Part shown: in pieces, positions 55,445-56,968 of the stretch
How the letters are laid out: each line of letters opens with the position of its first letter
Numbering within the stretch: the first letter of the stretch is position 1
Assembly: GCA_963701855.1 (NCBI GenBank)
Contig: CAVPBK010000013.1
Location: 41,574 to 105,573 of the forward strand
Source of the DNA: Nitrospirota bacterium
Lineage (GTDB): Bacteria; Nitrospirota; Nitrospiria; Nitrospirales; Nitrospiraceae
Length of the DNA: 64,000 nt
Direction: 5' to 3'
Translations under genes and position numbers: made by a program
Notes under the pieces: generated by a model
Told to the model about the DNA's origin: nothing
Database searches by the model: none
The model's input: only the letters and a program-made list of their open reading frames with translations

Positions 55445-55757
55445 TGGGATAACCTCATTACAGTATTAGGTCACTTGGCAAGACCCGTCAAGGCGTGGTA
55501 GTTCAAAATCCTCATCACGCTTCCCTGAATCTCCAATAAATCTTTCAAGTACTTCGGAGTAGAGTTCGGGTAAGTTCACAAAGAACTGGTTTTGAACCTT
55601 CAACGCACTCTCCCCATCAAGACAACATCGGATTCAAACGCCTCTGAAAGAGTGTGGGGCGAGTCTTCCGATACTGATCCGGCCCCTCCTTTCGTCAGCC
55701 GGAAATGCTAACTCCGGATCTGACCTGGTTTAAAGGGGGCAGCAACTGTCTTGGTTG

Positions 55758-56707
55758 TCAAGCACACTGAACCAGTTCTGTGCGCCATGGGGTCCGATGT
55801 TTCAGCATCGCATTCAGAATGATCAGCAGCTTCCGCATACAAGCGGTCAGTCCCACCTTCTTCGTCTTGCCCGCGGCGCGCAGGCGTTGGTAGAACGCAC
55901 GTATGACAGGATTGAAGCGCGCCGCCACGAGCGCGGCCATATAGAGCACGGCCCGGATCTGCGCCCGGCCGCCCCAGACCGTGCGCTTCCCGCGCAATGT
56001 CCCGCTGTCACGATTCAGTGGGGCCACCCCCACCAGCGCGGCAATCTGTTTGCCGGGCAACGTGCCAAGTTCCGGCAGCGTCGCCAGCAGCGTCGTCGTC
56101 ACCACGGGCCCCACCCCGGGTGCGCTCCGCAAGAGCGCCTCCTTCTCACGCCACACGGGACTCTCCCGAATCGCCTGGGCCAAGCCGCGGTCCGTGTGGC
56201 TCAATTCCCGCTCGAGCCAGGCAATGTGGGTGCGCAGGCTCTTGCGTACCGGCTTGCCAGCCATCCCCAGGCGGTTCTTCTCCGCCGTCAGCATCTCGAC
56301 GAGTTGCCGGCGACGCGTCAGGATCGCCGCCAGTGCCTGGGTCTGCTCATCCGGCAGGGGTCGCGGCTCCGGTCGCATGACCTCGGCGAAGTGCGCCAAC
56401 GTCTGGGCGTCCAACGCATCGGTTTTGGCGAGCCGCCCGGTGGCTTTGGCGAAGTCGCGCACCTGTCGCGGATTGACCACGACGACCGGCACCCCGGCGG
56501 CGGCCAATACCGCCGTGAGCGGGACTCTCCACACCCGCCGGTGGCTTCCAACACCACCAGCGTGGGGTGCACGGCGTTCAGACGTTCGAGCACCTGAGCA
56601 AATCCGGCCTCGTTGTTGGGAGCGGAGAACTGCCCCTCCGGTCGGAGGGCGAGGTCCAACTGCGCCTTGGAGATATCAATACCGACAAAGACCTGCGTAC
56701 TCGTCAT
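55758..56707 (-). pseudogene. IS110 recombinase/transposase, frameshifted near 56525-56533
   Basis: [37 protein letters not shown]; the expected GGLEVP appears with two extra bases. Confidence 0.9.
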
Positions 56708-56862
56708 CACGTCCTCCTTGGTGGCCCGGCCTTGCATGATACGGGCTCAATGGCCCACGCAACTGTTCGGGCTCGTTCCGTAGAAGGGCATGACGACCCT
56801 CGCTGCCCCACGGTCTTTGAAGACCTCGGTCACGTCGGTCTATCATGCCCGGGTTGATGATA
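56708..56862 (-). ncRNA. Predicted IS110 bridge RNA
   Basis: Two stem-loops. One contains GGGGCAG, complementary to the right-flank CTGCCCC; the other contains ACAGTTGC, matching the element's right end. Confidence 0.7.
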
Positions 56863-56968
56863 AGCTGTATCATTGTCGCCTTGGGCGCAAGATACAAGGT
56901 CATAGAACGCAACGATACACTTCCACCCTGTTCAGGAAACCACAGGAAACTCTGCCTCGTTCCCTCCC

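Follow-up and report, generated by a model that had tools for sequence, protein, structure and literature searches.

A probable bridge-RNA-guided IS110-group insertion sequence in a Nitrospirota genome, its boundaries and its target at the tip of IS3-family left inverted repeats

This analysis covers a window of 64,000 nucleotides (nt) from a Nitrospirota bacterium of the family Nitrospiraceae (contig CAVPBK010000013.1, positions 41,574 to 105,573; G000:C13:41574-105573). On its minus strand, from 55743 to 56896 and with a CT dinucleotide on each side, it very probably carries a canonical bridge-RNA-guided insertion sequence (IS) of the IS110 group. The analysis resolved the anatomy and boundaries of the element, the complementarity and covariation between its guides and the DNA, the conservation of the catalytic residues and the target's identity; the true target sequence is RTGAC-CT-GCCCCCT (14 nt). 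The element is a new representative of an already known type, and the knowledge of the mechanism is unchanged by it. A preliminary description, made by eye from the letters of the window, had recognized an IS110 element on the minus strand with a two-loop bridge RNA in its left end and a CT core; sequence, fold and covariance model all agree with this. The features are collected in Table 1.

The boundaries follow from comparison of copies. The genome has four full copies of the element, the one in the window included, and their alignment is homologous from TGTATC to ACAGTTG, with flanks in common only in RTGAC-CT on the left and in GCCCCCT, in some beyond it, on the right. The element starts at 56896 (TGTATCTT...), directly after the CT at 56898-56897, and its right end, ..GACAGTTG, is reached at 55743, before the CT at 55742-55741, as had been claimed. 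Direct reading of both ends reveals no terminal inverted repeats. The left end extends for about 190 nt up to the ATG at 56707; the right end, counted from the stop codon, is just 17 nt long. The unoccupied sites confirm the left limit: site E2 (C6) reads ..gcaagcaTGACCT|GCCCCCTATAAACC.., that is ..ATGACCT|GCCCCCT.., and site E1 (C12) reads ..tttgTGACCG|GCCCCCCTTAACCC.., so that TGAC-CT is part of the target and the element begins with TGTATCTT. Contigs from two soil-metagenome runs (X1 and X2) diverge from the window beyond 56902 and 56905 on one side and below 55735 and 55728 on the other.

The left end had been placed at 56864, and comparison with other copies had been proposed as a check. 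The copies show a different left end: the four-copy homology passes 56864 and continues for 32 nt, through TGACCTTGTATCTTGCGCCCAAGGCGACAA(T/G)GATACAG, to 56896, and the common target comes after it. Over the span first proposed the three other copies measure 1122 nt and the window copy 1124 nt. The 38-mer to the left of 56864 occurs genome-wide only beside the four copies and a remnant on C9, and as a fragment on C11. The remnant (G000:C9:211610-211703, L009) is a truncated left end of 94 nt, about 92% identical, with ATGAC-CT before it and unrelated sequence after it; the fragment (G000:C11:175467-175485) is 19 nt long and consists of TGACCT and the left end's initial 13 nt.

Two readings that keep 56864 as a limit have to be weighed against this. 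According to the first, the boundaries 55741-56864 are correct and the copy is an off-target insertion at GATACAG-CT-GCCCC. There is indeed a CT at 56864-56863 with TATCAT next to it, but the following 32 nt are identical or nearly so in four copies and in the truncated remnant, and independent off-target events cannot have a common flank. This stretch is never found without the element, relatives elsewhere begin with the same TGTATC, and the handshake base G (for the concept see the available text of PMC11208158) would oppose a G and not a C. The chance that this reading is right is practically nil. According to the second, the 38 nt belong to a long conserved target repeat, and a shorter element always sits in the same repeat. 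The right flank is truly repeated, and repetition on the left as well would in itself be no surprise, but E1, E2 and E3 pass directly from RTGACC(T/G/A) to GCCCCC without the 32 nt. The 32 nt also contain the -10 box and begin with the family-wide TGTATC, and the right donor guide pairs with CT-TGTAT, making this explanation extremely improbable. The right half of the target first reconstructed, GATACAG-CT-GCCCC, thus stands, while its left half falls because the left end is at 56896 and not 56864: GATACAG is a piece of the element and part of the 5' stem-loop. To the eye, CT and TATCAT inside this stem-loop mimicked the end of an element, a pitfall that copy comparison resolves at once.

The same left limit is seen outside this genome. 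Among the 201 genomes of the same order that were searched, 51 contain homologues, this genome counted, and 36 copies in ten multi-copy families from nine other genomes were retrieved. The boundaries of these families, set independently by copy-to-copy homology, lie at xT|TGTAT on the left in all ten (CT in nine; in G148 and G108 it is TT, or TT and CT). On the right they lie at ACAG(T/A)xx-CT or ACGGTTG-CT. For single-copy relatives the ends were placed by motif: the upstream end at CT|TGTAT, the downstream end where the sequence matches the left donor guide.

The left end folds into a well-defined structure (z = -4.89; none of 200 shuffles folds equally well). The consensus of nine family representatives has two stem-closed internal loops, and a covariance model, R1, built from their alignment, detects a single homologue in each of 45 sources out of 48, upstream of a recombinase gene in every case (a truncated gene fragment in L007). 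The sources in which it detects none are a C-terminal gene fragment, the 94-nt remnant and a distant family; in G108 (L064), which R1 misses, the guides were read by eye. Over 40 distinct rows, 95.7% of the cells are paired and 16 of the 28 pairs show compensatory change, as compared with 29-46% paired cells in shifted registers; no shuffle out of 500 equals the observed structure. Both loops had been described beforehand and are present. The target loop is closed by GGGCAUGA (56850-56843) with UCAUGCCC (56793-56786) and holds the inner hairpin GGUCUUCAAAGACC, and the donor loop reads CCCGA...GUGGGC..GCCC...CAAGGC.

The guides in these loops obey the strand rule given in the available text of PMC11208160, by which the 5' guides have the sequence of the top strand and the 3' guides its complement. 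The right target guide GGGGCAG (56809-56803) had been placed correctly as the exact reverse complement of CT-GCCCC, as had the left donor guide, whose ACAGUUGC (56766-56759) is identical with the right end ACAGTTGC(T), and the left target guide had been sought in the correct stretch of the RNA (GACGUGACC). The weak fit of the left target and right donor guides had been put down to an off-target insertion or to a slightly different left boundary. The latter was the right explanation: with the boundary at 56896 both guides fit, and so do both handshake bases, C56802 standing opposite donor position 7 (G) and G56730 opposite target position 7 (C). At the three other copies the left target guide matches GTGAC-C at 6-7 of 8 positions.

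Covariation of guides and flanks across relatives is an independent test on the target side. Of its 45 rows, 42 could be used, and 40 of these were distinct, with 28 distinct target loops; the three dropped rows have, respectively, a right flank off the contig, a truncated element and a guide with a gap. Scoring of the left target guide took the best of two registers, in the same way for cognate and permuted pairs. The right target guide matches at 7 of 7 positions in 27 rows, 6 in 10, 5 in 1 and 4 in 2, and the left at 7 of 8 positions in 13 rows, 6 in 16, 5 in 7, 4 in 3 and 2 in 1. Summed over the 28 target loops, the matches amount to 182 (right) and 163 (left), against permuted means of 120 and 102, and none of 10,000 permutations reaches either sum. 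Target flanks therefore covary with the GGGGCAG position across relatives, as the preliminary description had expected. The handshake pairs are present in 37 of 39 rows for each loop, in the variants G:C, A:T and U:A, and the donor-loop base is likewise equaled in none of 10,000 permutations.

These results bear on a different reading of the left end, as a leader or antisense-controlled 5' untranslated region that regulates translation of the recombinase, the interpretation given to regions of this type before 2024, the flank matches being a by-product of site-specific insertion by the protein alone. A structured region directly upstream of a start codon would suit such a role, and the related region of a Xanthomonas plasmid has been described as a sense/antisense pair of small RNAs. 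However, the guides vary with the flanks over the 28 distinct loops while the stems stay constant, the strand rule holds exactly as in the available text of PMC11208160, and the nearest proteins of solved structure are bridge-RNA recombinases. A purely regulatory leader is accordingly very hard to credit, and the left end is best read as a bridge RNA.

Table 1. Features of the IS110-group element and its insertion site (window coordinates)
Feature	Position	Strand	Basis or remark
IS110-family element proper	55743..56896	-	1154 bp in window copy, 1152 bp in three intact copies; CT-flanked
Left CT core dinucleotide	56897..56898	-	Four-copy alignment, empty sites
Right CT core dinucleotide	55741..55742	-	Four-copy alignment, empty sites
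Left target flank ATGAC	56899..56903	-	GTGAC at three other copies; first bases of IS3-family left inverted repeat
Right target flank GCCCCCT with decayed IS3-family left-end remnant	55681..55740	-	About 60 nt; no orfA behind it in window copy
Bridge RNA core, both loops	56720..56863	-	R1, 140 bits, E 1e-32
5' stem-loop AUGAUA-CAGCU-UAUCAU	56857..56873	-	Direct reading, fold
Target-binding loop (outer stem, internal loop, inner hairpin)	56786..56850	-	Fold, consensus, covariation
Donor-binding loop	56724..56772	-	Consensus, structure counts
Left target guide ACGUGACCG	56827..56835	-	Like top strand of left target plus first core base
Right target guide GGGGCAG	56803..56809	-	Reverse complement of CT-GCCCC (55742-55736), 7/7 at all four copies
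Left donor guide ACAGUUGCG	56758..56766	-	Against right end ACAGTTGC(T), 55749-55741; 8/9 against ACAGTTG-C(T)
Right donor guide AUGCAAG	56731..56737	-	All 7 pair with CT-TGTAT of corrected left end, one G.T wobble
Target-loop handshake bases C, G	56801..56802	-	Partners are donor positions 7 (G) and 6 (T)
Donor-loop handshake bases G, C	56729..56730	-	G pairs with target position 7 (C)
Recombinase gene	55758..56737	-	Broken in window copy into frames 56318-56737 and 55758-56534
Frameshift stretch	56523..56533	-	Extra single letters at 56523 and 56533, absent from three other copies and X1/X2 contigs
-35 box TTGACA	55756..55761	-	Right end, overlaps stop codon TGA; direct reading
-10 box TATCTT	56889..56894	-	Start of left end, 17 nt from TTGACA once ends are joined

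The recombinase supports the same assignment. The three other copies in the genome have an intact frame of 325 residues; the likely start is the ATG at 56707 behind GGAGG (56717-56713), which gives a protein of about 315 residues and leaves the donor loop outside the frame. The intact 325-residue protein contains the Pfam domains DEDD_Tnp_IS110 (PF01548, 1.9e-28) and Transposase_20 (PF02371, 3.1e-19), and in the window copy both are present but split across two overlapping frames. The NCBIfam model 'IS110 family RNA-guided transposase' (NF033542) scores 233.7 bits on the intact copy against a cut-off of 140. The protein aligns over its full length with the solved recombinases of ISCro4 (1.1e-43) and IS621 (4.5e-40). 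In the alignment, D21, E64, D106, D109 and the Ser-Gly of RDSGT line up with the GID, EATG, KTDxVDA and SG motifs of IS621, whose catalytic residues are D11, E60, D102, D105 and S241 according to the available text of PMC11208158. The frame of the window copy breaks just past E64. The three intact copies are 99.6-99.7% identical over 1.1 kb and their RNA is identical; the window copy has the same RNA and the same ends, and therefore would be mobile only with a recombinase supplied by those copies.

The right-flank repeat of the target also occurs unoccupied, in E1, E2 and E3. The unoccupied repeat copies run into an orfA that begins 67 nt from the tip, and the orfA of the best-kept copy, E3 (C5), matches HTH_Tnp_1 (2.6e-15) and the NCBIfam model of the IS3 family. 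Other IS3-type orfA genes of the same genome have tips such as TGACCTGCCCGGG, TGACCGGCCCCCC and TGACCTTCCCCCC (TGACCxxCCCC) 65-70 nt upstream. With an orfA behind the repeat and such tips elsewhere, the 14-nt target corresponds to the outermost tip of IS3-family left inverted repeats, and hence other insertion sequences receive the element within their ends. Of the four full copies, three are in decayed IS3 ends, and the fourth has only GCCCCCT in common with them. In the window a decayed IS3-family left end is split by the IS110 insertion into 55681-55740 (-) and the TGAC at 56899-56902. The genome has a considerable load of IS3-type sequences, with 38 HTH_Tnp_1 matches and 49 rve matches, one match being at 63283-63507 (+) of the window. 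The repeat copies, the three unoccupied ones as well as those occupied, are all decayed and retain orfA only or less; among the IS3 copies inspected, a subset of the rve matches, none is intact with exactly TGACCTGCCCCC.

The joined ends of the element would also provide a promoter. From the sequence, TTGACA-N17-TATCTT is predicted to form across the circle junction. The preliminary description had rightly picked out TTGACA (55761-55756), but the TATCAT (56862-56857) that it took as the -10 box, with a 15-nt spacer, belongs to the 5' stem-loop. A strict pattern, TTGAC[AT]-N17-TANNNT, is present in 22 of the 39 distinct relatives' junctions, the window element included, and the remaining junctions mostly have TTGAT-type -35 boxes; in G074 and G192 the junction has no good -35 box. 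By analogy with IS621, circles would be formed, the junction would be transcribed and the element may be active at the present day. Excision would join the right end (..TTGACA-ACCAAGACAGTTG) through a single CT to the left end (TGTATCTT..) and so create the promoter, from which the left end would be transcribed into a bridge RNA with its 5' stem-loop, target loop and donor loop. The right donor guide AUGCAAG would pair with the CT-TGTAT of the left end, and, after exchange of the top strands, the base one past each 3' guide (C and G) would pair with position 7 of the other DNA in the handshake. The DEDD/Ser recombinase would then place the circle into the CT of RTGAC-CT-GCCCCCT.

Whether the copies still move is a separate question, since all of them might be fossils, bridge-RNA elements by descent that no longer transpose. 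The genome has merely four full copies, one of them broken, besides the truncated remnant and the 19-nt left-end fragment on C11, and the circle junction is absent from the contigs of public runs. Against this, three 325-residue frames are intact and nearly identical, with identical RNA, runs of 16 studies, mostly soil or rhizosphere metagenomes, contain at least part of the stretch, and contigs of X1 and X2 span nearly the whole element; contigs are moreover blind to rare circles. Loss of mobility in all copies is unlikely, though it deserves serious consideration.

Several points tell against the reading of the element as a canonical bridge-RNA-guided insertion sequence that follows the described scheme in full. 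Eleven exact TGACCTGCCCC sites, perfect 11-mer targets, are unoccupied, so that the element may have little activity or may have lost it. At the window copy only 5 of 8 positions match the left target guide (ATGAC-C, with A for G at the sixth base before the core), and family G163 fits its left target guide poorly in either register (2/8). The ninth base of both 5' guides is a G, which mismatches the core T and departs from the statement, in the available text of PMC11208160, that in IS621 all four pairings take in the entire core. In many relatives the guide position of the second core base reads CG or CA for CU, so that the mismatch looks like a habit of the clade and not like a defect of the window copy; the portions of the bridge-RNA literature consulted yielded no discussion of it. 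As the ends of single-copy relatives were placed by motif, agreement on the donor side is circular for them and the target-side test alone is independent. The two extra letters of the window copy could be assembly errors and not mutations. The public runs, searched as assembled contigs, which cannot reveal rare circles, yielded no transcript, circle junction or new insertion. One contig from an RNA library that covers 56693-56902 extends into the flank and could derive from DNA; contigs of the RNA libraries are 90-96% alike and were counted neither for transcription nor for its absence, and uncovered parts in X15 and X16 carry no meaning. One soil RNA library (X16, record 17) has a 2899-nt contig from a relative about 95% alike, which spans the whole element within different flanks and lacks 368 nt of the recombinase gene (window 55882-56251); it may be a deletion derivative and could be DNA carry-over.

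Among the known systems, IS621 of E. coli (PMC11208160 and PMC11208158, in their available text) resembles the element in the order of its domains, its catalytic residues and the full-length protein match, in a left-end RNA with 5' stem-loop, target loop and donor loop and the same strand geometry of the guides, and in the CT core, the handshake bases, a -35 box in the right end and a -10 box in the left end. The two differ in that their proteins are distant, as judged from E values, the window element is short (1152-1154 bp) with its right end 17 nt past the stop codon, its two 5' guides mismatch the core T at the ninth base, and it targets an IS3-family inverted repeat at its tip. Repetitive extragenic palindromes are the targets of IS621, whose donor ends, ACAGT..-CT-TGTAT, resemble those of the window element. 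The best match among solved structures is ISCro4 (PDB 9t56, known by its entry name; E 1.1e-43, residues 13-317). In the sister group there is a precedent for the choice of target, since some IS1111-group elements, likewise DEDD-transposase elements, select the terminal inverted repeat of another transposable element. Members of that group carry sub-terminal inverted repeats, together with a long non-coding region downstream of the gene (PMC11187229), whereas the window element has its non-coding region upstream, has no such repeats and has a target in the IS3 family, not Tn21. Membership in the IS1111 group was rejected on the position of the non-coding region, only 17 nt following the stop codon.

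An Rfam scan of the region gave no match to a bridge-RNA family, and its sole relevant match was to RF02234, sX15, at 56704-56862 (+), 159 nt on the strand opposite to the bridge RNA; the other five matches have E values above 3 and are noise. Membership in RF02234 was likewise rejected, the score being 30.1 bits against a gathering score of 55, and on the opposite strand. Model R1 in turn matches the minus strand of the Xanthomonas plasmid pXCV183 (NC_007507 116393-116533; L081 1894-2034) with an E value of 5.2e-08, beside an IS3 family transposase gene. Two small RNAs are known from this region, sX15 at 116378-116536 (+) and asX7 at 116528-116459 (-) (PMC3300014), and the R1 match is antisense to the former and sense with the latter. 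Judged by sequence, sX15 and asX7 appear to be the two strands of an IS110-family bridge-RNA remnant. If sX15 is the antisense strand of such a remnant, it is no family under which the window element could be filed. A literature search did not find sX15 and bridge RNA named together.

Several relatives illustrate the variety of targets in this group. The same genome encodes three more IS110-family relatives, L005 (G000:C5), L006 (G000:C10) and L007 (G000:C6:714084-714363), with 60-66% protein identity or truncated, each with its own bridge RNA and differing guides. The target of L005 is CAAAGAC-CT-G(A/T)C.. and that of L006, which adjoins an IS3-type element, is GGTTTC-CT-AAACC. The relative in G076 (L048-L051, L075) has the target GCATGCC-CT-GAGTC and lies within a longer repeat, possibly a miniature transposable element, that has inverted repeats at its boundaries (GGGAATGTTCAAAAAAGC ... 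GCTTTTTTCAACATTCCC). Four families, those in G074, G126, G192 and G150 (L044-L047, L052-L057, L069-L072, L074), have a common target, CCCCTC-CT-TACAAAGGAGGGG, which is a short palindromic repeat of the extragenic-palindrome kind. In G068 (L058, L059) the left end starts with its initial 13 nt duplicated in tandem (TGTATCTTGATTC twice). A sister family in that genome (L060-L062) has a different target loop, CGCUCAG as compared with GGCUCAG, matching GAGCG and GAGCC, respectively, and the two families are a clean natural reprogramming pair. In the window, the genes on either side of the element, at 56969-58132 (-) and 54521-55444 (-), are both uninterrupted; the former encodes a metallo-hydrolase with the Lactamase_B_2 fold (8.3e-45), the latter a zinc-type alcohol dehydrogenase.

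Correction of the left boundary turns a system that was partly readable into one that is fully readable, an annotated natural bridge-RNA system with defined boundaries, core, four guides, handshake bases, junction promoter and 14-nt target. The element is compact, with 1.15 kb in all and a recombinase of about 315-325 residues, and its approximately 28 natural relatives with different target loops are a ready-made table of natural reprogramming. Specialists may take note of an insertion sequence whose target lies in the ends of another, and of sX15, an Rfam family that is seemingly the antisense strand of a bridge RNA. On balance, the evidence tilts modestly towards a lineage that has specialized on TGAC-CT-GCCCCCT, the 13 bp at the very tip of IS3-family left inverted repeats, that homes into the tips of other insertion sequences and cuts them off, and in which the 5' guides of the clade leave the second core base unpaired, with sX15 and asX7 explained as the two strands of a bridge-RNA remnant beside an IS3-family element.

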